DNA of 51,000 nt from a virus. Lineage: Duplodnaviria > Caudoviricetes. How positions within the stretch are numbered: position 1 is the first letter of the stretch; each line of letters starts with the position of its first letter. The stretch spans positions 1 through 51,000 of the IMG/VR virus record IMGVR_UViG_3300044648_000011. One strand, 5' to 3'. Shown one piece after another: positions 2,504-49,147 of the stretch. The position numbers and the translations under genes were made by a program. A model generated the notes under the pieces. That model did not search any database and was not told where the DNA came from. It saw only the letters and a list, made by a program, of their open reading frames with translations.

Positions 2504-3784
2504 ATGCTTAAGAAGCACTCCGAACGCACGGTCAGGAAGCCTTGCCAGAAGTGCGGTAGCCGTAATCTGTACTGGGCTCACGACACCGACCGCGAAACCG
2601 GCGAGTGGTGCGCTCGATGCGACTCGAACGGCAAGTTCACGTTCATTAACCCGGACGGCACACGTCACGACTGCCAGAACAAACACGGTGCCAAGCTCGA
2701 CCCGTTCGGTTTCGACCGGAACAAGAACGGTTTGTACGACGAGGTTAACGACCGGCCCGACGACAAACTTCAGATTGAGGGCAGCAAGACCGAACAGCCC
2801 TACAAGATCCACACCATGCAGGATGGTATCGAGATCCCCAAGCCCGGCCCCCGAGTCAAGAAGGATGATGTAAAGGTGAAGACGGACAGCAACCCTGATG
2901 TTCAGGCCGCACTCGGCTTGCTTGCAGAGGCTCTTGGGGGCCCCAAGCTCGATGAGAGCAAGATCGAACAGATGATTCGAGACCAGATCTCGAACGTTGT
3001 CTTCCCGACTCGCACCGTGGTTGAGAAGCTCAACGGGGAGCGTAAGGAACTCGAGGGTTCGACTCACCACAAGCTCGCAGACGTGACCACGGCTCTCATG
3101 GCGGGTGAACACGTGATGATGGTTGGACCGGCCGGAACCGGTAAGTCCACCATCGCAGAGCAGGCCGCAGACGCGCTTAGCCTGCCGTCCTACTCCATTT
3201 CGCTTAGCCCCCAGACGCCCGCATCGCAGCTTCTGGGGTACATGCAGGCGCAAGGCGAGTACGTGCCGAGCTTGTTCCGCAAGGCTTACGAGAACGGTGG
3301 TGTGTTCCACTTCGATGAGATGGACAACGCTCACCCGTCGGTCCTGGCCACGATCAACGCGGCCTTGGCGAACGGGCACATGGCGTTCCCCGATCAGATG
3401 GTGAAGCGCCACGAGAACTTCCGGGCGGTTGCCAGCGCCAACACCTACGGCCGTGGTGCTACTCGCGCCTACGTCGGTCGACAGGCTATCGACGCTGCGA
3501 CGCTCGACCGGTTCTCCATCGAGACCATTGAGGTTGACGAGTCGCTTGAGAACGAGCTGTGCCACTCAATCGACCTCGAAAAGGCTCAGGTCGACCGGGT
3601 CCTGAAGTTCGTGCGCAAGCTCCGTAAGAACGCTGAGACGCACGGTATGACCGTGGTTGTCTCCCCGCGTGCGTCGGTAGGCATGTGCCGTCTCCTGGCC
3701 GCTGGTCGGTCCTGGGAGTCTGCGGTTGAGGCTCGTGTCCGTCGCGGTCTGAGTGACGCTGACTGGAAAAAGCTCAACGGCTAG
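2504..3784 (+). CDS. MoxR/CobS/CbbQ-type AAA+ ATPase with N-terminal Cys-rich (Zn) domain
   Basis: Walker A GPAGTGKS, Walker B FHFDEMD, ASANT, DAATLDRF, SPR; N-terminal CxxC pairs. Confidence 0.9.
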   Translation: MLKKHSERTVRKPCQKCGSRNLYWAHDTDRETGEWCARCDSNGKFTFINPDGTRHDCQNKHGAKLDPFGFDRNKNGLYDEVNDRPDDKLQIEGSKTEQPYKIHTMQDGIEIPKPGPRVKKDDVKVKTDSNPDVQAALGLLAEALGGPKLDESKIEQMIRDQISNVVFPTRTVVEKLNGERKELEGSTHHKLADVTTALMAGEHVMMVGPAGTGKSTIAEQAADALSLPSYSISLSPQTPASQLLGYMQAQGEYVPSLFRKAYENGGVFHFDEMDNAHPSVLATINAALANGHMAFPDQMVKRHENFRAVASANTYGRGATRAYVGRQAIDAATLDRFSIETIEVDESLENELCHSIDLEKAQVDRVLKFVRKLRKNAETHGMTVVVSPRASVGMCRLLAAGRSWESAVEARVRRGLSDADWKKLNG

Positions 3785-3797
3785 AAAGCTTTGGATA

Positions 3798-3875
3798 GGG
3801 CGATAGGCTAGCGGCTATGCCGGTTGGTGGCCTTAGGGTGCACTGACAGACCCCGGTTCGAATCCGGGTCGCCCA
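3798..3875 (+). ncRNA. tRNA-like element 3 (cloverleaf with elongated anticodon arm)
   Basis: GGGCGA/TCGCCC-A; D-arm GGC-TAGCGGCTAT-GCC; GTTGGTG/CACTGAC; CCCGG-TTCGAAT-CCGGG. Confidence 0.75.
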
Positions 3876-3908
3876 CAAGTTAAAATCAATAATGAGAGAG
3901 GCTTGGAT

Positions 3909-4793
3909 ATGCGGATCACACAAGAGGGCAACCACATTCGTCACGACTTCGATTCCATCGCTGAGATAGCGCAGGTTGCGCGTGACTCGAGTGAGCCCGG
4001 TCGTAGTCGTGGCCGGGGTTACGACGGTAAGAAGAGTTGCTATCACGATCTGGACGGGTTCGGCGGTTACGAATTCTTTCACGTTCGCAACCACAAGGAA
4101 CTGAACAACCTTGTCCAGAACGGATGGGAAGAGCACGCCGACAGCACATACCAGGTCGCAGAAGAGACTCTGAAGTCGGTTGCTCGTGAGTACGACATGC
4201 CGTCATTCCAGAGCTATTACGACGTGACCGGGTCAGACGTTGACGTTGACCGGTTCCTGTCTGGTGAGCCTGAGAACATGATCGCTTACCACATGGTGTC
4301 CACTCCTAAGGCTGGACGAGTGATCACGATCGTGTCTAACATCGCTGTGAATGCGATGACGAGTACCAAGAAGATGATCGCCCGGGGTAAGGCTGTAGCC
4401 GCTTTGGTGATGGCCATCGAAAGTCTTGGTCTCCGGACTGAGCTGTTCGTCGAAATGCAGAATGACTGCGGCTACGGATTCAAGAAAGGCAGTTACACCT
4501 TGCGTCAGGTGACCAAGGTCAAGAGTCCTGAAGACACGCTAGACGCATCGCTGATGCTCTTCGGGTTTGCTCATCCCGGGTTCTTCCGTTCGTTGTCTCT
4601 GGGAGCCATGTGGGCGCTTCCCAAGGAGTTGCACGATGACTTTGGGGTTGGCTATGGGCACGGCCACGCCACGAACGACCTGGGTTACGAAGATGCCTAC
4701 CCGGAAGGGACGATTCACATCCCGTCGTCACTGGACATCGACAACCCGCGTGGATTCGTGGTTGAGCATCTTACAGGCTTGGGGATCATCTGA
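3909..4793 (+). CDS. vWA-like partner of the AAA+ ATPase (degenerate MIDAS)
   Basis: GSDVDVDRFLSGEPENM followed by strand-helix VITIVSNIAVN...GKAVAALV; adjacent to MoxR-type ATPase. Confidence 0.6.
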   Translation: MRITQEGNHIRHDFDSIAEIAQVARDSSEPGRSRGRGYDGKKSCYHDLDGFGGYEFFHVRNHKELNNLVQNGWEEHADSTYQVAEETLKSVAREYDMPSFQSYYDVTGSDVDVDRFLSGEPENMIAYHMVSTPKAGRVITIVSNIAVNAMTSTKKMIARGKAVAALVMAIESLGLRTELFVEMQNDCGYGFKKGSYTLRQVTKVKSPEDTLDASLMLFGFAHPGFFRSLSLGAMWALPKELHDDFGVGYGHGHATNDLGYEDAYPEGTIHIPSSLDIDNPRGFVVEHLTGLGII

Positions 4794-4794
4794 A

Positions 4795-5046
4795 ATGAAA
4801 TACACATGCGATGATGTAGTTGTTCTAGATACAACAGTAGAAGATCATGAAAGTGCTCTTCTCATCGAGATTCGTGAGCGATTCTTTGTTGTATCAGTCG
4901 CACACCGATTCGGAAATTGTTACGAAACGTGCGTATACAGATCCGACCCCGACGGTTGTATCGACGATTGGGGCGAAGTTGTCTGCGTACCCGGAATCGA
5001 TCATTACGAAGCAATTGAATGGCTGTTAGAAGAGTTGAATACCTAA
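4795..5046 (+). CDS. hypothetical protein
   Basis: ATG just after upstream stop; YETCVY motif. Confidence 0.7.
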   Translation: MKYTCDDVVVLDTTVEDHESALLIEIRERFFVVSVAHRFGNCYETCVYRSDPDGCIDDWGEVVCVPGIDHYEAIEWLLEELNT

Positions 5047-5235
5047 TACTGAATGGGAACCTAGTGCGTAAACGGATAGGGAGCGCACCGTGCCGCAGGT
5101 GAGGGTTTAGGCGGATTGAATGTGAGACACGGGTATGGTGGTTGTGGAGAGCTTAGGGGATGCGTGTCGCTACCTTAGGTTCAGTGAAGCCCTAGCGGTA
5201 GGAGTCACCACGGAATCTGTGCATTATGTAAGATC

Positions 5236-5308
5236 GGGTGTGTAGCTCAGCGGCAGAGTGCGCCGGTTAGGGCGCGGGTCGAGGGTTCGAGTCCCTCCAC
5301 ATCCACCA
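5236..5308 (+). tRNA. non-canonical tRNA / tRNA-like element 4 (Ala identity, 6-nt anticodon loop, encoded CCA)
   Basis: GGGTGTG/CACATCC-ACCA with G3:U70; canonical D and T arms; GCGCC-GGTTAG-GGCGC. Confidence 0.8.
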
Positions 5309-5401
5309 GGACAGCAAGGTGCAACCTTGACTAATAGACTCGCAACCTATTGGTTCCTGAGTAACCATGGTCGCCGCTGGCGCGTGTGAAAGGGCTGTCC
5401 G
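5309..5401 (+). ncRNA. candidate four-way-junction RNA abutting the CCA of element 4
   Basis: GGACAGC/GCTGTCC closing helix enclosing three hairpins. Confidence 0.5.
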
Positions 5402-5438
5402 TCAAACTACAGATTTGGAATAAATAGAAGGGGTTGAT

Positions 5439-5633
5439 ATGGCAGACCGATTCAAAGTGGTGTGGAATGGCTCGACCAAAAAGTGGGGAGTTTGGGACAA
5501 GAATAAGGGGGCTTACGCATTCGGAACCGAGCAACTGACGGACGGTCCCAAGCATAAGAAGAGGCTACAGAAGCAAGCCGATGACATGAATAGTGAATGG
5601 GAACGCATCAAGCGAGAGAAGAAAGGCAAGTAA
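5439..5633 (+). CDS. hypothetical protein
   Basis: ORF with AAGGGG RBS. Confidence 0.75.
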   Translation: MADRFKVVWNGSTKKWGVWDKNKGAYAFGTEQLTDGPKHKKRLQKQADDMNSEWERIKREKKGK

Positions 5634-5735
5634 CCGGGCTGAGTCTGTCGGAGAGCGGTTGAAACACCCTCTCCGGTAGAGTCTACCCGGCAACGTGCTT
5701 AAGACGCTTAGAAACGAAATGAGAGGCAGGAAAGC

Positions 5736-5945
5736 ATGAGTGAAGCCGAGCATGTCTATCGTGTTATTCGAAACGATGGTCGTACCATCTGGGAGGGAAG
5801 GGGCTCAGACCCGTTCACCCGACGTGCGTCCGCTCGAGCTAGGGCAACCAAGCTCAACAATGAACGAATTCGTTGGGGTGAAGACCATCCCGCCTACAAG
5901 GTTCAGCGTGCGGTAGTCGAGTGGGAGGATGACACGGATGAGTGA
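5736..5945 (+). CDS. hypothetical protein, YRV...VEW paralog 1
   Basis: VYRVIRNDG...KVQRAVVEWED. Confidence 0.8.
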   Translation: MSEAEHVYRVIRNDGRTIWEGRGSDPFTRRASARARATKLNNERIRWGEDHPAYKVQRAVVEWEDDTDE

Positions 5946-6120
5946 ACCTGAGTACGTCTACCGCGTGGTGCAGGATGACGGCACCCCGATTCGTACGGGT
6001 ACATACGCGTCAGCAGGAGGTCGACAACACACCTACCCAAAACAGCACACAGCGGAAATCGTGGCTAAGGCCAAGGGTTGTAAGGTGCAGCGATCACGAG
6101 TAGAGTGGGAGGACGTGTGA
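5938..6120 (+). CDS. hypothetical protein, YRV...VEW paralog 2
   Basis: VYRVVQDDG...KVQRSRVEWED. Confidence 0.8.
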   Translation: MSEPEYVYRVVQDDGTPIRTGTYASAGGRQHTYPKQHTAEIVAKAKGCKVQRSRVEWEDV

Positions 6121-9287: not shown

Positions 9288-9674
9288 ATGAGCGACGATA
9301 ACAAGACGGTGCACGCTGACATCATCCTGACTCTCAAGGGTGGTCCGTACGACAAGACTCCGTTCATGGAGATGATCCATCACGGGAACGTGTCGGGCGA
9401 CGAGACTTCAGTTGACAGGCTGCGGCAGATCTCTTCCCTGCTGTTCGAGGCGGCATGGCTGATGGAAGACCAGGCCAACAAGTTCTCGGAATACGAAAGT
9501 CTTCGTGTCTTCGAGGACACGTCAGGCAACCAGTGGTTTGAGGTGAAGACAGACGTGTTCTACTGCGCTTCTGACCTCGAAGAGGCTCAGAGTCTGTTCG
9601 TGGCTGGTGCGCCCAACACCACCGAAAAGGCTTTGCGTGCGGTGAATGGCGATAAGCTGAAGGAGGTCAAGTGA
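9288..9674 (+). CDS. hypothetical protein
   Basis: ORF with RBS. Confidence 0.7.
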   Translation: MSDDNKTVHADIILTLKGGPYDKTPFMEMIHHGNVSGDETSVDRLRQISSLLFEAAWLMEDQANKFSEYESLRVFEDTSGNQWFEVKTDVFYCASDLEEAQSLFVAGAPNTTEKALRAVNGDKLKEVK

Positions 9675-10339
9675 TTACCTTCGAGGCATGGCCTAAGACG
9701 CCAAGGCTTAACAACCGTGGGACTACGATCACCGAGAAGATCGATGGCACCAACGCTGCTGTAGTGATCATTCCTGTGAATGCGATCGAAGCATGGGGTC
9801 GGTTGTGCACCGACTACGGTGGCTTTGCCTGGGTGGATGATACAGTTCGTAAGGACATCACTTACGTGGTTGGTGCTCAGTCCCGTAAGCGATTGATTCG
9901 TCCCGGAGACGACAACGCAGGCTTTGCTACGTGGGTAAGCCAGAACGTAGACGAGTTGGTGGATCTGCTCGGCCCTGGTCGCCACTTTGGTGAGTGGTGG
10001 GGACAGGGTATCCAGCGTCGCTACGGCATGGATCGCAAGGTGTTCTCTCTGTTCAACACCCACAAGTGGGGTAAGATCGCCACAGAGCGTCTTGACTGGC
10101 ACAGTCGAGCCCGCGATATCAACATGTCAGTTGTACCTCTTCTCTGGGAGGGCAAGTTTTCGGATGTAGTGGTAGACATGAGCATCGGATCACTACGCCA
10201 GAACGGCTCTTACGCCGCTGCTGAGTGGGGCTTTGCCGGACAACCGGCAGAAGGCATCATTCTTCGGCATAGAGAACTTGGAGGCAATCTGAAGGTGCTT
10301 CTCGAAAACGATGATATCCCGAAAGGAGTAGCACGTTGA
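9671..10339 (+). CDS. RNA ligase, Rnl2-like nucleotidyltransferase domain
   Basis: motif I TEKIDGTNA, QSRKR, FGEWWG, FSLF, EGII. Confidence 0.85.
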   Translation: MITFEAWPKTPRLNNRGTTITEKIDGTNAAVVIIPVNAIEAWGRLCTDYGGFAWVDDTVRKDITYVVGAQSRKRLIRPGDDNAGFATWVSQNVDELVDLLGPGRHFGEWWGQGIQRRYGMDRKVFSLFNTHKWGKIATERLDWHSRARDINMSVVPLLWEGKFSDVVVDMSIGSLRQNGSYAAAEWGFAGQPAEGIILRHRELGGNLKVLLENDDIPKGVAR

Positions 10340-23132: not shown

Positions 23133-23184
23133 CGACATGGACCGGTCCGGCCCTTTGGGGTCGGGCCTTTCCGGAGAGGAAGCT

Positions 23185-24249
23185 ATGAAGCTTAACCAGC
23201 TAATCAATCCAGACCTTATGCGTCGTATGCTCGAGGGTGGATTCATTCGCAAGCAGAAGCACCCGAGCCTGGATCTGTACATCTACAACTACAGCGAGAA
23301 GGCTCAGTTCTCCAAGATGTGGAATACAGCTACCCTGGCTTGTCGAGGACTGATCGTGGATGGCGAAGGCAACATCGTTGCTCGCCCCTTCCCCAAGTTC
23401 TTCAACTGGGAGGAACCTAAGCCTAAGGGCAAGAAGTTTCAGATGAGCCTAGACGAACCTGTCGTTGTCACAGACAAGATGGATGGATCTCTAGGTATCC
23501 TGTATCGGGCTGTGCCCGGATCGAAGACGGTAACTAGAATCGCCACGCGAGGAAGCTTCGAGAGCGAACAGGCTAAGCGAGGTACTGAGATCCTAGGTAC
23601 TAAATATTCACACTTCTATCCGCCTGATGGTTGGACCATGCTCTTCGAGATCATCTATCCGGAGAACCGTATTGTACTTGACTACGGCGACATGGAAGAC
23701 CTCGTATTGCTCGGAGGGGTAGACATCGAGAGTGGCACCATAGTCGGCCCTGAGAGCTTCCCTAGGTGGTTCGGCCCCAAGACTCAGACCTTCCCCTACA
23801 AGACTCTACGAGAGGCCCTTAGCGTGGCTCCTAGGCCGGGTAAAGAGGGTTTGGTAGTAAGGTCGCTCATGGATGATTTGATGATCAAGCTTAAGCAGGC
23901 TGACTACATAGAGCTGCACAAGATCGTAACCGGTCTGAACGAGCGTGTGATCTGGGAGCGGCTGTCTGAGGGACGAGACGCCTTCGAAGGCATCCCGGAT
24001 GAGTGGCACAAGTGGGTTCAAGAAGTCGCTGAACCGTTGCTGCAAGCTCATGGTGAGCTAAGGATGGCTGCCTGGGGCGAATGGCTTAAGGTTCGTCACC
24101 TAGTCAACAATCGTCGTGCTTTTGCGATGGCCGTCAAGGACTTGACACCGTGGCTCAAAACTGTTATGTTTCTCTGGGCAGACGGGAAGGACGCACATCC
24201 ATTCCTGTGGAAGCAGGTCAAGCCGAGAGGAGACAAGACGGATGGCTGA
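23185..24249 (+). CDS. RNA ligase, T4 Rnl1-like
   Basis: CRGLI, PFPKFFN, motif I DKMDGSLG, ATRGSF, LFEII, EGLV, IKLK. Confidence 0.92.
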   Translation: MKLNQLINPDLMRRMLEGGFIRKQKHPSLDLYIYNYSEKAQFSKMWNTATLACRGLIVDGEGNIVARPFPKFFNWEEPKPKGKKFQMSLDEPVVVTDKMDGSLGILYRAVPGSKTVTRIATRGSFESEQAKRGTEILGTKYSHFYPPDGWTMLFEIIYPENRIVLDYGDMEDLVLLGGVDIESGTIVGPESFPRWFGPKTQTFPYKTLREALSVAPRPGKEGLVVRSLMDDLMIKLKQADYIELHKIVTGLNERVIWERLSEGRDAFEGIPDEWHKWVQEVAEPLLQAHGELRMAAWGEWLKVRHLVNNRRAFAMAVKDLTPWLKTVMFLWADGKDAHPFLWKQVKPRGDKTDG

Positions 24250-24876: not shown

Positions 24877-25785
24877 ATGAGTGGTACGCTCGTAATCTTT
24901 CGAGGGTTGCCGGCTAGTGGTAAGACAACTCGAGCTAAGCTTTTGCGGGCAAGCTCTGGAGGTCGTCTCGTCGGTCGTGACCATCTGCGTGTGATCCTAG
25001 GTGCTGAAGGGCTCGGAACACCAAAGCAAGAAGCCGAGGTGACTGCGCTTCAGGATCGTCTCATCGCTCAAGGCTTGCAGAATGACGAGTACGTATACGT
25101 CGATGATCAGAACCTGAAATCAGTGTATGTGTCTCGGCTGATTGGCCTTGCCCAGAAGTACAACGCCTTCTACGTGATTGAGGACATGACTTTCCTGGAC
25201 GTTGTGACCTGTCTAGAGCGCAACGAAGGTCGGGAACGTAGGGTCCCGGCTGAGCTGATCGTTACCAACTACGAAAAGTATGTCAAGGGTAAGACATACC
25301 CCCTTCCCGTCCCTAAGGGAAAGCTAAGCTCTCCGTATCTTCCTCCTGAGCCTTATGTTCCTCCTACAGGAGGCATCAAAGCTGTGTTGGTGGACGTAGA
25401 CGGCACAGTAGCTGACCACACGGGGATTCGAGGGCATCACGAGTACGACAAAGTTGGTCTAGACCTTCCCAAGTACGATGTCATCAAGATGGTTCGGGCG
25501 GCATTGGAAGCTGGATACACGCCAATCTTCCTGTCCGGTCGTCCCGAGAAGTCTCGATACGATACCCGACAGTGGTTGAACAGGCATGTGACTACAGCAG
25601 GATCTCTGCTGATGCGTCAGGACGGCGACCACCGGGCTGATTACATCGTCAAGAAGGAACTGTTCGACGAGTACGTTCGGAACACCTACCGTGTAGCGGT
25701 AGCTTTCGACGATCGCAATCAGGTGGTTGACATGTACCGAGAGATGGGTCTTACGGTTCTCCAAGTCGCTGAAGGGAACTTCTGA
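24877..25785 (+). CDS. pnk: polynucleotide 5'-kinase/3'-phosphatase (PseT-like)
   Basis: GLPASGKT...RD kinase domain; DVDGT, SGR, FDDRNQVV phosphatase domain. Confidence 0.93.
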   Translation: MSGTLVIFRGLPASGKTTRAKLLRASSGGRLVGRDHLRVILGAEGLGTPKQEAEVTALQDRLIAQGLQNDEYVYVDDQNLKSVYVSRLIGLAQKYNAFYVIEDMTFLDVVTCLERNEGRERRVPAELIVTNYEKYVKGKTYPLPVPKGKLSSPYLPPEPYVPPTGGIKAVLVDVDGTVADHTGIRGHHEYDKVGLDLPKYDVIKMVRAALEAGYTPIFLSGRPEKSRYDTRQWLNRHVTTAGSLLMRQDGDHRADYIVKKELFDEYVRNTYRVAVAFDDRNQVVDMYREMGLTVLQVAEGNF

Positions 25786-45880: not shown

Positions 45881-45931
45881 TGTCAACCCCTTCTCGTTGG
45901 TGATGACAGCATACCACACTTCGTGTCTATG

Positions 45932-46003
45932 TGCACCTGGCAGGACTCGAACCTGCGTCTCCGACTTAAGAGGACGGAGCTAAACCATCTCAGCTACAAG
46001 TGC
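45932..46003 (-). tRNA. tRNA-Lys(CUU)
   Basis: cloverleaf, loop CT-CTT-AA. Confidence 0.9.
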
Positions 46004-46004
46004 G

Positions 46005-46079
46005 TAGGTCTGGAAGGATTTGAACCTTCGGTCTCTTCGTTATCAGCGAAGTGCTTTTACCGGACTAAGCTACAAACCT
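46005..46079 (-). tRNA. tRNA-Ile(GAU)
   Basis: cloverleaf, loop CT-GAT-AA. Confidence 0.92.
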
Positions 46080-46080
46080 A

Positions 46081-46157
46081 TGGTGGAGCCTGCGGGGATC
46101 GAACCCGCCGCCTCTTCCTTGCAAGGGAAGCGCTCTTCCTAAATGAGCTAAGACCCC
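46081..46157 (-). tRNA. tRNA-Ala(UGC)
   Basis: G3:U70, loop CT-TGC-AA, CCA encoded. Confidence 0.93.
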
Positions 46158-46159
46158 GG

Positions 46160-46230
46160 AGCCTCTGGTAGGAATCGAACCCACGTCACCTGTTTACAAG
46201 ACAGGAGCTAAGCCACTCAGCTACAAAGGC
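46160..46230 (-). tRNA. tRNA-Thr(UGU)
   Basis: loop CT-TGT-AA. Confidence 0.92.
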
Positions 46231-46234
46231 AATG

Positions 46235-46306
46235 CTGCCCATCAAGGATTCGAACCTCAAACAATTGGTTCAGAGCCAACCGTGTTGCCAATTACACCAA
46301 TGGGCA
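46235..46306 (-). tRNA. tRNA-Gln(CUG)
   Basis: U1-A72, loop CT-CTG-AA. Confidence 0.92.
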
Positions 46307-46364
46307 TTACGAGCCAGCCCCGGTCAATGGAAATTCCAAAGGCACTGAGGCAGACTGGCTCTCG

Positions 46365-46437
46365 ACCCCCTGACAGGACTCGAACCTGCACGTGAACGCT
46401 TAGAAGGCGTCTGATCTTCCAATTGAACTACAAGGGG
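46365..46437 (-). tRNA. tRNA-Arg(UCU)
   Basis: loop CT-TCT-AA. Confidence 0.88.
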
Positions 46438-46438
46438 A

Positions 46439-46523
46439 TGGCAGCGGATAAAGGTATTGATCCCTCGAGTGTAACCCCGGCCTGGTTTTCAAGACCAGTT
46501 TGTGCACCTGCACGCTATCCGCT
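46439..46523 (-). tRNA. tRNA-Ser(UGA), atypical D-arm and T-loop
   Basis: CTGGT-CTTGAAA-ACCAG, long variable arm, G73-CCA. Confidence 0.75.
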
Positions 46524-46527
46524 CTAG

Positions 46528-46600
46528 CACCCCTAACAGGATTCGAACCTGCGACAACCCACGTTCGTAGCGTGGCGCTCTTCCACTGAGCTATAGGGGA
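46528..46600 (-). tRNA. tRNA-Arg(ACG)
   Basis: loop CT-ACG-AA. Confidence 0.9.
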
Positions 46601-46668
46601 TTGTGTCGGAGTTCAGCACCCACCCTCATGCCCTCAACGGACAATCGTGGTACCCGACTCGGGTTCTC

Positions 46669-46739
46669 GTCCTGCCGGGAGGGATCGAACCTCCTACAGT
46701 AGCGGTTTACAGCCGCGCTGCTCTCCAAGAGCGTCAGGA
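46669..46739 (-). tRNA. tRNA-Tyr(GUA), atypical
   Basis: GCGG-CTGTAAA-CCGC; canonical T-arm; irregular acceptor/D junction. Confidence 0.7.
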
Positions 46740-46760
46740 TGGGTCTTTCGACCCTATGGA

Positions 46761-46976
46761 CTAGAATACATCTTCTGGCTTGGCAATAGCACGTACAAAG
46801 AACATAAAGCCCTCTTGCAGATGCGTCTTGGCTAGAGCCATCGAACGCTTGTCGATATCGTCAAACTGAGCAAATTCTCGCCATAGTTGACCGACCTGCT
46901 TCTCCATGTCCTTGACACGATTCATGTCGGCTACATCATCTTCGCTTAGTTCGCGATAACCCTTAACGTCAGGCAT
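46761..46976 (-). CDS. acb2: Acb2-family cyclic-oligonucleotide sponge (anti-CBASS; T4 Vs.4-like)
   Basis: KGYRELS..D...MNRVK...R..ALAKT.LQ.GFM..VRAIA.P..F matches the Acb2 signature; start at ATG 46976. Confidence 0.85.
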   Translation of the reverse strand: MPDVKGYRELSEDDVADMNRVKDMEKQVGQLWREFAQFDDIDKRSMALAKTHLQEGFMFFVRAIAKPEDVF

Positions 46977-47008
46977 CCTCGACCTTTCGTAGTTTATAAT
47001 ACCTTGCG

Positions 47009-47080
47009 TGGAATCTACAGGGTTCGAACCTATGCGCACCGGGCTTCAACCGGTTGCTCTACCCACTGAGCTAAGATTCC
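47009..47080 (-). tRNA. tRNA-Phe(GAA)
   Basis: loop TT-GAA-GC. Confidence 0.9.
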
Positions 47081-47152
47081 ATAAGCAGACACCGCATTCG
47101 ATCCTAAATGCTCATTTAATCAAGGCTCGGAACGTCCCTGAAGTGCCTTACG

Positions 47153-47236
47153 AGGAAGATAAAGGAATCGAACCCTTAGGCTTTCACCTAGTACTAGCTT
47201 AGCACGCTAGTTGCCAACCAATAGGCACTATCTTCC
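47153..47236 (-). tRNA. tRNA-Ser(GCU)
   Basis: loop GT-GCT-AA, long variable arm. Confidence 0.85.
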
Positions 47237-47238
47237 GG

Positions 47239-47312
47239 GGTGACTGGAGGGTATCGCACCCTCTTCCATCGGATTCACAGTCCAATAAACTCACTTTTCG
47301 TATCTCAGTCAC
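47239..47312 (-). tRNA. tRNA-His(GUG), weak D-arm
   Basis: GTGACTG/CAGTCAC-C73, loop CT-GTG-AA; no encoded G-1. Confidence 0.72.
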
Positions 47313-47314
47313 AG

Positions 47315-47386
47315 TCCCTTCACAAGGATTCGAACCTTGGACCCGCTGCTTGTAGGGCAGCCGCTCTTCCGCTGAGCTATAAAGGG
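47315..47386 (-). tRNA. tRNA-Val(UAC)
   Basis: loop CC-TAC-AA (C33). Confidence 0.88.
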
Positions 47387-47387
47387 G

Positions 47388-47460
47388 TAGCTCTCCCGGG
47401 ATTCGAACCCGGACTGAACAGTTTCTAAGACTGTTGCCTCTCCCGTTGGGCTAGAGAGCC
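47388..47460 (-). tRNA. tRNA-Leu(UAG), short variable region
   Basis: loop CT-TAG-AA. Confidence 0.88.
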
Positions 47461-47501
47461 ATATGGATTACAGGCACTTTCATGTCAGCCTGCTTATCCA
47501 G

Positions 47502-47572
47502 CACCGATAGAAGGATTCGAACCTTCGCGGACCGGTTTTGGAGACCAGCCGACACATCCAGCGCTTATCGAT
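47502..47572 (-). tRNA. tRNA-Trp(CCA)
   Basis: loop CT-CCA-AA, G73; weak D-arm. Confidence 0.8.
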
Positions 47573-47608
47573 AAGAGGAGTCAACATTGCCTAGGATATC
47601 AACTCCAG

Positions 47609-47682
47609 TAGCGGGAGTGAGATTTGAACTCACGACCTTAGGCTTATGAGGCCCACGCGCTAGCCTACTGCGCCATCCCGCT
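47609..47682 (-). tRNA. tRNA-Met(CAU)
   Basis: loop CT-CAT-AA; initiator vs elongator unclear. Confidence 0.9.
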
Positions 47683-47729
47683 AGAGTATCCAGGTGGTAG
47701 CGAGGTACCTGGATACTGGTCTGTTATGC

Positions 47730-47861
47730 TCACGGTTGTCCGTACAACTCGCGATACATCTCCCGAACCTCGTGTCGGTCATGTCCTTCTGCGTTCGGCA
47801 CATGCGGCCTGCGCGATTGATCAGCCAACCTGTCCGCGTATCGTTCAACTTCAGTAAGCAT
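47730..47861 (-). CDS. small hypothetical protein (43 aa)
   Basis: GAGAGG RBS, MLTEVERYADRL... Confidence 0.5.
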   Translation of the reverse strand: MLTEVERYADRLADQSRRPHVPNAEGHDRHEVREMYRELYGQP

Positions 47862-47871
47862 ATCTAACCTC

Positions 47872-48309
47872 TCAACTCGTGCTTAGCAGATCATCCGTCA
47901 GTTCGGGCAATGTATCCGTGATGTTGTTCATTACTCGATCAGCGTCCGTTGCGTACATCCAACCACCGTAATACCCATTCGAGTCGTTCCGGAAACTAAA
48001 GACCGAAGTCTGTTCACCCCACATGTCCGATTCAGTGAAGATTTGGAATCCGTAGCAACGGGTTACGTCGTAGTCGTTTTTCTCGTCTTCGCCGAGATCT
48101 ACTTCTTTGACCGAAATTACCGGTCCGTTCTCCAAGAGCTTCTTGACTCCGTGGAAATCATAAAAGTAGCTGTGCGAGCAACAGTCACCTTCGACTGTGA
48201 AGGCAAAACGTCCTTCGTCCGTCTCGAAGACCAAGTATTCGTCGTTCATAAAGACACGCTCGATGACCTTGCCAACCAAATTCCCTAGGCCGTTGTCTGA
48301 ACTCCACAT
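47872..48309 (-). CDS. conserved phage hypothetical protein
   Basis: GDCCS...NDSNGYYGGW motif; GAGGAG RBS. Confidence 0.8.
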   Translation of the reverse strand: MWSSDNGLGNLVGKVIERVFMNDEYLVFETDEGRFAFTVEGDCCSHSYFYDFHGVKKLLENGPVISVKEVDLGEDEKNDYDVTRCYGFQIFTESDMWGEQTSVFSFRNDSNGYYGGWMYATDADRVMNNITDTLPELTDDLLSTS

Positions 48310-48358
48310 GATCTTCTCTCCTCTCTACGTTAGAGGCAGCAGCGTACCACCGCCCACG

Positions 48359-48430
48359 CGCACCGAACGGGATTCGAACCCGCGTCTCCCAAGTTGACAA
48401 CCTGGTGCTCTACCGCTGAGCTATCCGTGC
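48359..48430 (-). tRNA. tRNA-Asp(GUC)
   Basis: loop TT-GTC-AA, G73. Confidence 0.9.
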
Positions 48431-48434
48431 TTGA

Positions 48435-48538
48435 TAAGACCATACTACACGACGACCCGACTTGTGCACAAGCCTCTCGCGCCCCTTCCCCACATCCGTA
48501 TTCACCCTAAAGGATGACAACAACCTCGTATGGTCTTA
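48435..48538 (-). ncRNA. candidate structured RNA between tRNA-Asn and tRNA-Asp
   Basis: perfect 11-bp closing helix TAAGACCATAC/GTATGGTCTTA. Confidence 0.45.
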
Positions 48539-48540
48539 CG

Positions 48541-48614
48541 CTGGCTAGACAGGACTCGAACCTGTAACAACCGGGTTAACAGCCCGGCTCCCCTGCCGAT
48601 GGGGACTCTAACCA
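48541..48614 (-). tRNA. tRNA-Asn(GUU)
   Basis: loop CT-GTT-AA, U1-A72, G73. Confidence 0.88.
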
Positions 48615-48689
48615 TGAAGGTCAGCCGTATTAGGGTCTGACCCTGTCGACTCCTTCCACAAGAAGTTAATCTTGCACAGGTGGCCGTCG

Positions 48690-48760
48690 TCAGGCCACGA
48701 GGAATTGAACCTCGTCCGCTTCATTCCAAATGAACCATGCAACCACTACACCATGGCCTG
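48690..48760 (-). tRNA. tRNA-Pro(UGG)
   Basis: C1-G72, loop TT-TGG-AA. Confidence 0.88.
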
Positions 48761-48917
48761 GCAACGCTAGTCGCGGTGGTCGATCACACCATCCCACTAG
48801 CTCTGGGCACCTTGAGAATTCAAGTCTCGTCTTACGTCCTTAGGATGCACGCCCTAAGGAACCCAGCTAAAGCTAGTCACAGTTTCACTGCCGTGAGGCA
48901 GGCTTTCTGCAACCGCG

Positions 48918-48989
48918 AGCGTTATACAGGATTCGAACCTGCTCCGTCTGGTTGGAAGCCAGACATGCTACCGTTAACACCAATAACGC
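48918..48989 (-). tRNA. tRNA-Gly(UCC)
   Basis: loop CT-TCC-AA, U73. Confidence 0.93.
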
Positions 48990-48992
48990 AAG

Positions 48993-49071
48993 GGGCCGGT
49001 CCGGAAGATTCGAACTCCCGATTCTCCCAATTGTGAGGGATTTTCTTCTGCCTGAACAAAGATTACCAGCC
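48993..49071 (-). pseudogene. pseudo-tRNA / tRNA-like element
   Basis: GGCTGGT/ACCGGCC, GGGAG-TTCGAAT-CTTCC; irregular core; TCCC-TCACAATT-GGGA. Confidence 0.65.
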
Positions 49072-49075
49072 TTTG

Positions 49076-49147
49076 TACTCCGTACGGGGATCGAACCCGT
49101 GCTTCCAGGGTGAAAACCTGGCGTGCTTACCATTACACCAACCGAGC
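49076..49147 (-). tRNA. tRNA-Glu(UUC)
   Basis: loop TT-TTC-AC. Confidence 0.9.

Follow-up and report, generated by a model that had tools for sequence, protein, structure and literature searches.

A tRNA-shaped actinophage gene with an alanine identity pair, a tRNA-Val(CAC)-like scaffold and no usable anticodon

Introduction

The transfer RNA (tRNA) genes of phages are usually seen as a codon supply or as replacements for tRNAs cut by host defences (excerpt of PMC10264068). This raises the question of what a phage might do with a tRNA-shaped gene that carries the mark for charging with an amino acid and has no usable anticodon. Such a gene lies at positions 5236-5308 of the IMG/VR virus record IMGVR_UViG_3300044648_000011 (51,000 bases; completeness rating 98%), the whole of which was analysed here and is called the window. 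An earlier note on this DNA had described the locus as a probably non-decoding tRNA that could be charged with alanine. Three points are new in the present analysis and emerge from comparison of the gene with bacterial tRNAs: its scaffold is a host-type tRNA-Val(CAC), its anticodon arm is a replacement, and its alanine mark goes back to a single A3G change. The coordinates of the features are collected in Table 1.

Results

Anatomy of the gene

The acceptor stem of the gene is formed by seven pairs between 5236-5242 and 5298-5304, and is followed by A73 (5305) and an encoded CCA (5306-5308). The D stem has four pairs, one of them G:U, and its seven-base loop contains GG, while a variable loop of five bases leads to a five-pair T stem capped by the T loop UUCGAGU. 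All 21 stem pairs are standard pairings, and both elbow elements are in place: GG in the D loop, and a T loop that fits UUCRANY. The Rfam tRNA model RF00005 scores 45.7 bits on 5236-5305 as a four-arm cloverleaf (gathering threshold 29), and RNAfold reproduces the acceptor stem, a six-base hairpin and the T arm at -31.0 kcal/mol. The description in the earlier note of G1-C72, G2-C71, G3:U70, A73, an encoded CCA and D and T arms is borne out by direct reading, ARAGORN and Rfam, as is, by reading, ARAGORN and RNAfold, its account of an anticodon hairpin with the six-base loop GGUUAG.

This hairpin is where the gene departs from a canonical tRNA, whose anticodon loop has seven nucleotides (excerpt of PMC7609411). 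The loop at 5265-5270 has six and lacks U33, and zero bases separate the D stem from the anticodon stem, so that position 26 is missing. ARAGORN labels the gene tRNA-??? with a two-base 'anticodon' (tt), which is its output for six-base loops. None of the alternative registers with a seven-base loop pairs on direct reading. A register displaying UAG, which the note had also mentioned, can be drawn by opening the closing C-G pair, but the resulting eight-base loop is still without U33. The anatomy, namely the six-base loop and the absence of U33 and position 26, suggests that the RNA would probably not decode, in agreement with what the note had proposed.

Two other RNA classes were considered and rejected. 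Transfer-messenger RNA (tmRNA, RF00023) gives a local match of 35.1 bits against a gathering threshold of 47, with 312 model positions skipped, and permuted tmRNA reaches 17.8 bits, likewise below gathering; there is no tag frame and there are no pseudoknots, and ARAGORN calls no tmRNA. For a Y RNA of the YrlA type there is no Rfam match, and 5236-5308 ends at its acceptor stem, unlike the YrlA described in the excerpt of PMC4201824.

A sequencing or assembly error is countered by a contig of an independent assembler (a Logan contig of 51,026 nucleotides, depth 60.2, from a public run) that is identical over 4600-6000, the sample being probably the same and not an independent one. Three other runs (X2, X3 and X5) cover only parts of the window at or after 5439, along with a 32-base piece at 4608-4639 in X2, and leave the tRNA uncovered. 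One X2 contig differs from the window upstream of 5439, and we conclude nothing from these three runs.

A scaffold shared with tRNA-Val(CAC)

A scan of 185,579 species genomes for the 25-mer at the 3' end of the gene found exact matches in 14 genomes only, all of them Actinomycetota, and in all 14 the match is the tRNA-Val(CAC) gene. Ornithinibacter, Fodinibacter, Phycicoccus and Oryzobacter are represented, and the named genomes belong to the Intrasporangiaceae. The match is narrow, since among 201 genomes of the same order the 25-mer has just one exact and five two-mismatch matches. The chance that a 25-mer would find such a match somewhere in the collection, taxonomic fit aside, is about 1/10 by a rough estimate that was not computed.

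We then compared the whole gene with five such genomes. BLAST with a 146-base query returns tRNA-Val(CAC) as the top match in all five (E 5e-10 to 3e-7), with alignments that span only window 5235/5236-5308 and with flanks that are unlike; the phage's own tRNA-Ala(UGC) finds merely weak partial matches in the same genomes (E ~1e-4). A covariance model of the gene places tRNA-Val(CAC) on top in four of the five (54.8-51.2 bits). In the fifth the top match is tRNA-Lys(UUU) at 57.6 bits, and tRNA-Ala(GGC) reaches 54.1 bits in the same set. Total model scores fail to single out valine, and it is the acceptor stem that points to it: 13 of its 14 bases are shared with tRNA-Val(CAC), as are all 26 of the 3' end.

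In a structural alignment with tRNA-Val(CAC), 52 of 60 positions are identical outside the anticodon arm as against 3 of 17 inside it (Fisher p = 1.8e-7), which indicates that the arm was replaced and not shortened by a single deletion. Outside the arm the phage gene differs by A3G, by a D loop with two bases fewer and one change, by the loss of position 26 and by A44G; two further differences lie in stems, C25U, which gives G10:U25, and G50A, which turns a G:U into an A-U pair. Pairing is maintained or improved by all three stem changes (A3G, C25U and G50A), and the five pairs of the new arm form a perfect helix. According to the earlier note, a normal loop in homologues would point to a recent deletion or a sequencing error. 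The closest relative, tRNA-Val(CAC), does have a seven-base loop, but its whole arm is unlike that of the phage gene, so a one-base deletion from a canonical loop is ruled out. The only one-base insertion that restores U33 gives G[U]GUUAG, in which G32 and G38 remain.

The D stem, A73 and the encoded CCA are common to the phage gene and tRNA-Val(CAC) (e.g. loci L363 and L371). With the arm replaced, the anticodon CAC and with it A35 are absent from the phage gene, and so the valine anticodon determinant is lost and, through the change of A3 to G, an alanine determinant gained. The tRNA genes around the top matches of the model in these bacteria all end in CCA (13 of 13; six distinct, two clipped by the ARAGORN boundary), which fits a host origin of the CCA in 5236-5308. 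Judged by its sequence, the scaffold is that of the tRNA-Val(CAC) of Intrasporangiaceae-type actinobacteria, and these bacteria are likely to be the host group. The gene is hence no tRNA-Ala that has lost one base; it is a valine-type scaffold in which one transition made an alanine determinant and the decoding arm was replaced.

Alanine identity

The identity set of bacterial tRNA-Ala comprises A73, G2-C71, G3.U70, G4-C69 and G20, valine identity needs A35, and the introduction of G3.U70 at 3-70 gave tRNA-Tyr a double identity (all from an excerpt of PMC9976931). The phage gene has the major element G3.U70 as well as A73 and G2-C71, and its alanylation is a reasonable prediction. Among 144 unique tRNAs from relatives and comparators, the full signature with a GGG start and a UCC-A-CCA end is found, besides this gene, only in tRNA-Ala and in one Aeromonas-phage suppressor. 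The latter, annotated in Aeromonas phage Akh-2 as an amber-suppressor tRNA (CTA; L052, 262-336), has G1-C72, G2-C71, G3:U70, A73 and CCA and looks like an alanine-inserting suppressor.

The gene shares G1-C72, G2-C71, G3:U70, A73, CCA and a GGGUUCGA-type T arm with both tRNA-Ala and the tRNA-like domain of tmRNA. It differs from tRNA-Ala in that the NGC anticodon of the latter is absent (the loop being GGUUAG), and from tmRNA in having a full D arm and a middle hairpin. The window also encodes, at 46081-46157 on the minus strand, the normal tRNA-Ala(UGC) that the note had reported, likewise with G3:U70, A73 and CCA. A partial parallel is offered by tRNA-ProX of Streptomyces, a natural dual-identity tRNA that is also from Actinomycetota and in which, as in the phage gene, a scaffold is joined to foreign identity or anticodon elements. 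According to the excerpt of PMC10404621, tRNA-ProX keeps a seven-base loop and decodes, reading Asn or Thr codons as Pro, whereas the phage gene is predicted to have no usable anticodon.

Comparable RNAs in other phages

We searched IMG/VR with a pattern of our own choosing, which combines the common D arm, a shortened middle, the common T loop and CCA, and obtained 66 loci with 49 unique sequences. More than half of these (27 of 49) have a 7/7 acceptor stem, good D and T stems, a middle of 17-21 bases and a loop of four to six bases, and most of the 27 are closed by tetraloops such as GAAA and GCAA. Their acceptor sequences mostly differ from that of the phage gene, and the set derives from a chosen pattern and is not one proven family. 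G3:U70 together with A73 also occurs in three of the 27 (L289, L290 and L344). One of the three belongs to record G054, where it is the sole tRNA-like call of ARAGORN in the 7 kb fetched and lies between genes for an outer-membrane beta-barrel and a CHAP-domain protein. This record is a complete 44-kb phage with terminal repeats, and its locus L353 (3519-3591, minus strand) has G3:U70, A73, CCA and, where the anticodon loop would be, a UUUG tetraloop. A sub-group of 73-nucleotide genes (L292, L297, L301, L304, L310 and others; at least 24 loci) shares the same acceptor stem and CCA, and in its middle a conserved AGGAGGU-AUG-like stretch replaces the anticodon arm.

The closest annotated precedents come from phage T5, whose RNA1 and RNA2 are annotated as 'tRNA-like stable RNA with unknown functions' and whose RNA3 (NC_005859, 33877-33949; 73 nucleotides, ACCA end) is annotated as 'putative tRNA-like RNA'. 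In the predicted fold of RNA3, one stem is acceptor-like and one hairpin resembles a T arm, while the middle hairpin, as in the phage gene, has six bases in its loop. Unlike the phage gene, RNA3 shows neither a clear D arm nor a canonical T loop in its fold, and it lies inside a tRNA array beside tRNA-Asn. Like T5 RNA1-3, the RNA from 5236-5308 is phage-encoded, has a tRNA-like fold and lacks a usable anticodon. A search of the library of papers used here returned nothing relevant on anticodon-less tRNA mimics of phages and nothing on T5 RNA3.

Resemblances of the arm

The gene body, from D arm to T arm, was compared by BLAST with 50,697 phage records. The best full-length match is an RER2-like Rhodococcus-phage tRNA-Asn(GUU) at 78.7% (E = 0.03; 41 rows among the matches listed), followed by a Caulobacter-phage tRNA-Pro. 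tRNA-Asn also comes first among the 144 unique tRNAs by a small margin (best score 31, mean 18.3). For a donor of the stem we searched 121 Intrasporangiaceae genomes, in which three pattern matches, none of them a tRNA, compare with 12 for the reversed control.

The covariance model of the gene was also run on the full records of 50 of 80 relatives by terminase. It matches ordinary tRNAs of 74-79 nucleotides in 17 of the 50 (at most 47.7 bits), the best being tRNA-Asn(GUU), then Pro, Val, Lys and His. One relative, record G020 (terminase 68% identical), has in its array a tRNA (L263, 2087-2157, complement) with the six-base loop CAUGGG and one acceptor mismatch, which ARAGORN calls His|Pro.

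Discussion

A proposed non-decoding tRNA mimic

We tentatively favour the reading that 5236-5308 is a genuine gene whose product, a tRNA mimic that can be charged with alanine but does not decode, is under selection and acts in trans. Transcription of the RNA would be part of early rightward expression, and RNase P cleavage and 3' trimming would release it; as the GG of the D loop and the T loop are intact, it would adopt the L shape typical of tRNAs. Without its anticodon it would no longer be recognised by valyl-tRNA synthetase (ValRS); alanyl-tRNA synthetase (AlaRS) would alanylate it, and it would be unable to pair with codons on the ribosome. In the mechanism that we prefer, the mimic would tie up a host protein that binds tRNAs by their acceptor/T-arm half, for example a tRNA-directed defence enzyme, a decoy step that we consider rather doubtful in itself. 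More doubtful again is the complete scheme, in which A3G has moved a re-tooled host tRNA-Val(CAC) from ValRS to AlaRS, the arm swap bars it from the ribosome, and the charged mimic serves off the ribosome, either as a decoy that obstructs a host enzyme acting on tRNA acceptor ends or as an alanine carrier, within a wider, undescribed anticodon-less class.

The real cloverleaf, the narrow match to tRNA-Val(CAC), the stem changes that preserve pairing and the full alanine signature all suggest such a mimic. The same is suggested by the position of the gene off the tRNA array, by a second non-decoding tRNA-like element, by the repair genes and 20 tRNAs of the phage (see below) and by the comparable anticodon-less genes elsewhere.

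Several observations weigh against it. Searches of phage, IMG/VR and metagenome sequences found no orthologue, and hence the gene has no support from conservation or covariation: the 3' 25-mer has no match in IMG/VR; the 16-base hairpin has 48 matches, none inside a tRNA; a 23-base pattern of the 5' part occurs at 119 or more metagenome loci, all those listed being ordinary tRNAs with other arms and 3' strands; and no 73-nucleotide model match is found in the 50 records of terminase relatives. Among public sequencing runs, no RNA run is listed as holding the stretch. The folding energy is modest (z = -1.66, with 10 of 200 shuffles folding equally well). The claim of the note that the RNA can be charged with alanine stands as far as A73, G2-C71 and G3:U70 are concerned, but of the minor elements G4-C69 is replaced by U4-A69 and G20 is not evident, the short D loop having C before A21. 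G3:U70 alone is found in 12 of the 144 tRNAs, five of them ordinary non-Ala tRNAs, so that A3G could be an accident. The related phage G020 has a sporadic tRNA with a six-base loop in its array, and the arm swap itself could be the outcome of two tRNA genes recombining in one step into a dead hybrid. Finally, Pnkp is found in two of 50 records that carry short tRNA-like genes, a count given with no baseline; a class-wide link of these genes to tRNA repair was therefore rejected.

Alternative readings

Nearly as likely as the mimic, and ranked just below it, is a gene without function: a phage copy of a host-type tRNA-Val(CAC) would have recombined with a different tRNA gene or rearranged in its middle, lost a loop base and so far escaped deletion, with G3:U70 a chance transition. 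The singleton status of the gene fits this, as do the other six-base-loop tRNA and the ordinary non-Ala tRNAs with G3:U70. The D loop and arm weakly resemble the tRNA-Asn(GUU) of actinophages, and the insertion that restores U33 gives, by eye, the anticodon GUU; the likeness of the arm to Asn is not decisive, however, for tRNA-Lys(CUU) ties with it at 11 of 16. A decaying gene would also have to account for the intact state of every stem pair and the three substitutions that keep pairing, for a place off the tRNA array in a compact early region near a second non-decoding tRNA-like element, and for the recurrence of similar anticodon-less designs in other phages.

It is improbable that the locus acts in cis as a processing signal, its tRNA shape drawing RNase P and 3' enzymes to cut the polycistronic early transcript between the genes at 5046 and 5439, with the same role for the element at 3797-3876. 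Both tRNA-like elements are intergenic and share one transcription direction, and related Mycobacterium/Gordonia phages have a GC-rich inverted repeat (seen by eye) at the place of the latter. Any ordinary tRNA would serve this purpose, however, and neither the match to a host acceptor stem nor G3:U70 nor an encoded CCA would be needed.

A very improbable reading sees in the 3' part an attachment-site remnant, the core at which an integrase acted on tRNA-Val(CAC), inherited from a temperate ancestor or served by an integrase provided in trans. As in an attP core, there is identity with the 3' end of the target tRNA (26 bases), and an Oryzobacter genome with the exact tRNA (G101) indicates that this tRNA end can be so used. 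There a repeat of the final 21-23 bases of the tRNA occurs 34.6 kb downstream. The stretch bounded by tRNA-Val(CAC) and this repeat (G101:C1:51648-86322; L398, L399) includes a tyrosine integrase at 85007-85576, 0.7 kb from the repeat, and is probably an integrated element. The tRNA end beside an integrase implies that tRNA-Val(CAC) serves as the integration site in that genome. The phage, in contrast, has neither a tyrosine integrase nor a serine recombinase (no matches to PF00589 and PF00239 in the record). The likeness of 5236-5308 to tRNA-Val(CAC) extends over the 5' half as well and ends where the tRNA ends, whereas the G101 repeat lacks a tRNA-like 5' part, and no relative of the terminase was found in five such genomes.

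Slighter still is the prospect that the alanylated RNA is an alanine donor off the ribosome, feeding a tRNA-dependent transferase, for instance one in cell-wall or lipid modification. Alanine identity elements combined with a disabled anticodon would suit such a role, but no tRNA-dependent transferase appears among the 61 + 15 proteins scanned, a weak negative given the many small open reading frames without a family. Least probable of all is abnormal decoding, as doublet or frameshift reading or as Asn-to-Ala mistranslation through the GUU of the loop: the loop contains GUUA, as in tRNA-Asn, and doublet decoding by normal tRNAs has been described (excerpts of PMC12202706 and PMC6920855), but the loop has six bases, U33 and position 26 are absent, and the same search of the paper library returned no natural six-base anticodon loop reported to decode.

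If the mimic is real, a non-decoding RNA that copies the enzyme-facing half of a host tRNA and adds an alanine mark would point to RNA mimicry directed at tRNA-binding proteins, and would provide a concrete and testable example of an identity switch by one base. The exact match to tRNA-Val(CAC) in addition points to Intrasporangiaceae-type actinobacteria as a host lead for this uncultured phage. Anticodon-less genes with CCA recur in other viral contigs, which suggests that a class of phage RNAs may be going unnoticed because annotation pipelines discard such calls.

The phage genome and neighbouring elements

The window represents a soil phage of about 51 kb that resembles the actinophages of cluster A and has no integrase; its large terminase shares 64% identity with the terminases of Rhodococcus phage RGL3 and of cluster-A-type Mycobacterium phages. 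Long open reading frames and GC skew show that genes run rightward to about 26 kb and leftward thereafter. The 21 tRNA calls of ARAGORN comprise 19 in a minus-strand array at 45931-49147 and two on the plus strand (3797-3876 and 5236-5308). One more tRNA at 47239-47312 on the minus strand, missed by ARAGORN, was found by Rfam alone (38.3 bits), and its loop reads GTG (His) by eye. Taken together (ARAGORN, Rfam and reading), there are 20 ordinary tRNAs, which cover all amino acids except Cys. Of the 22 tRNA or tRNA-like genes of the window, only 5236-5308 and the tRNA-Ala(UGC) have an encoded CCA.

The two ligase-like genes and the Pnkp-like gene (Table 1) look like a tRNA repair kit, and the combination of such genes with tRNAs for all amino acids but cysteine suggests a heavy investment of the phage in tRNA supply and repair. 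The gene at 5236-5308 lies 40 kb from the array, on the opposite strand and in the early region, where one flanking gene ends at 5046 and the next starts at 5439. A scan of 3500-6000 gave no promoter and one terminator-like site on the other strand, and the flanks of the gene do not stand out as structured RNA (folding z = -0.8 and -1.0).

Table 1. Position, strand and basis of the features discussed in the text
Feature	Position	Strand	Basis or remark
tRNA-shaped gene, 73 nucleotides, encoded CCA	5236-5308	+	ARAGORN, Rfam, direct reading, RNAfold
G3 opposite U70 (5302), the predicted alanine identity pair; A3-U70 in the matching tRNA-Val(CAC)	5238	+	Direct reading, alignment
Replaced anticodon arm	5260-5275	+	Stem 5260-5264 with 5271-5275, five Watson-Crick pairs (four G-C/C-G)
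3' end shared with tRNA-Val(CAC): end of T stem, T loop, 3' acceptor strand, A73, CCA	5283-5308	+	26 bases identical in 13 of 14 genomes; L359 matches 25
Second tRNA-like element, possible companion	3797-3876	+	ARAGORN call, fold
60-base non-coding element	5053-5112	+	90% and 88% identity with Microbacterium phages Huwbert and Triscuit
Further RNA-ligase-like gene	9671-10339	+	Protein family scan
Rnl1-like RNA ligase	23137-24249	+	Protein family scan
Pnkp-like polynucleotide kinase-phosphatase	24877-25785	+	Protein family scan

The second tRNA-like element combines an acceptor stem with a perfect T arm, while a ten-pair hairpin with a UUAG tip takes the place of the anticodon arm. We judge the ARAGORN call of tRNA-Gln(ttg) for it implausible. 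It has no Rfam match at E<=1 and no match in the five candidate host genomes. It lies 1.4 kb upstream of 5236-5308, in the same transcription direction, between the genes for an AAA ATPase and a DUF7192 protein. These two occupy window 2504-4793 on the plus strand, the ATPase being of the MoxR type and preceding the DUF7192 protein, and the same pair is found near the right end of Mycobacterium/Gordonia phages; relatives with the pair have no tRNA at that spot. TTAGGGNGC is found at the hairpin tips of both tRNA-like elements, and was rejected as a shared motif since its count alone is not significant (two sites as against 1.05 expected, with 29 of 100 shuffles reaching two).

It is uncertain whether the 60-base element belongs to the gene at 5236-5308. 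Its counterpart in Huwbert lies 20 bases upstream of a tRNA-Asn, and the window and Huwbert have unrelated open reading frames upstream of the element. One change in its hairpin may be compensatory by eye; RNAalifold scored it as one-sided.

Record G001 (locus L177), an IMG/VR fragment of 10.2 kb whose terminase is 100% identical, represents a close strain. The fragment, which does not extend to the locus of 5236-5308, has a single base change in the tRNA-Ala and carries an extra tRNA-Leu(CAA) with CCA.

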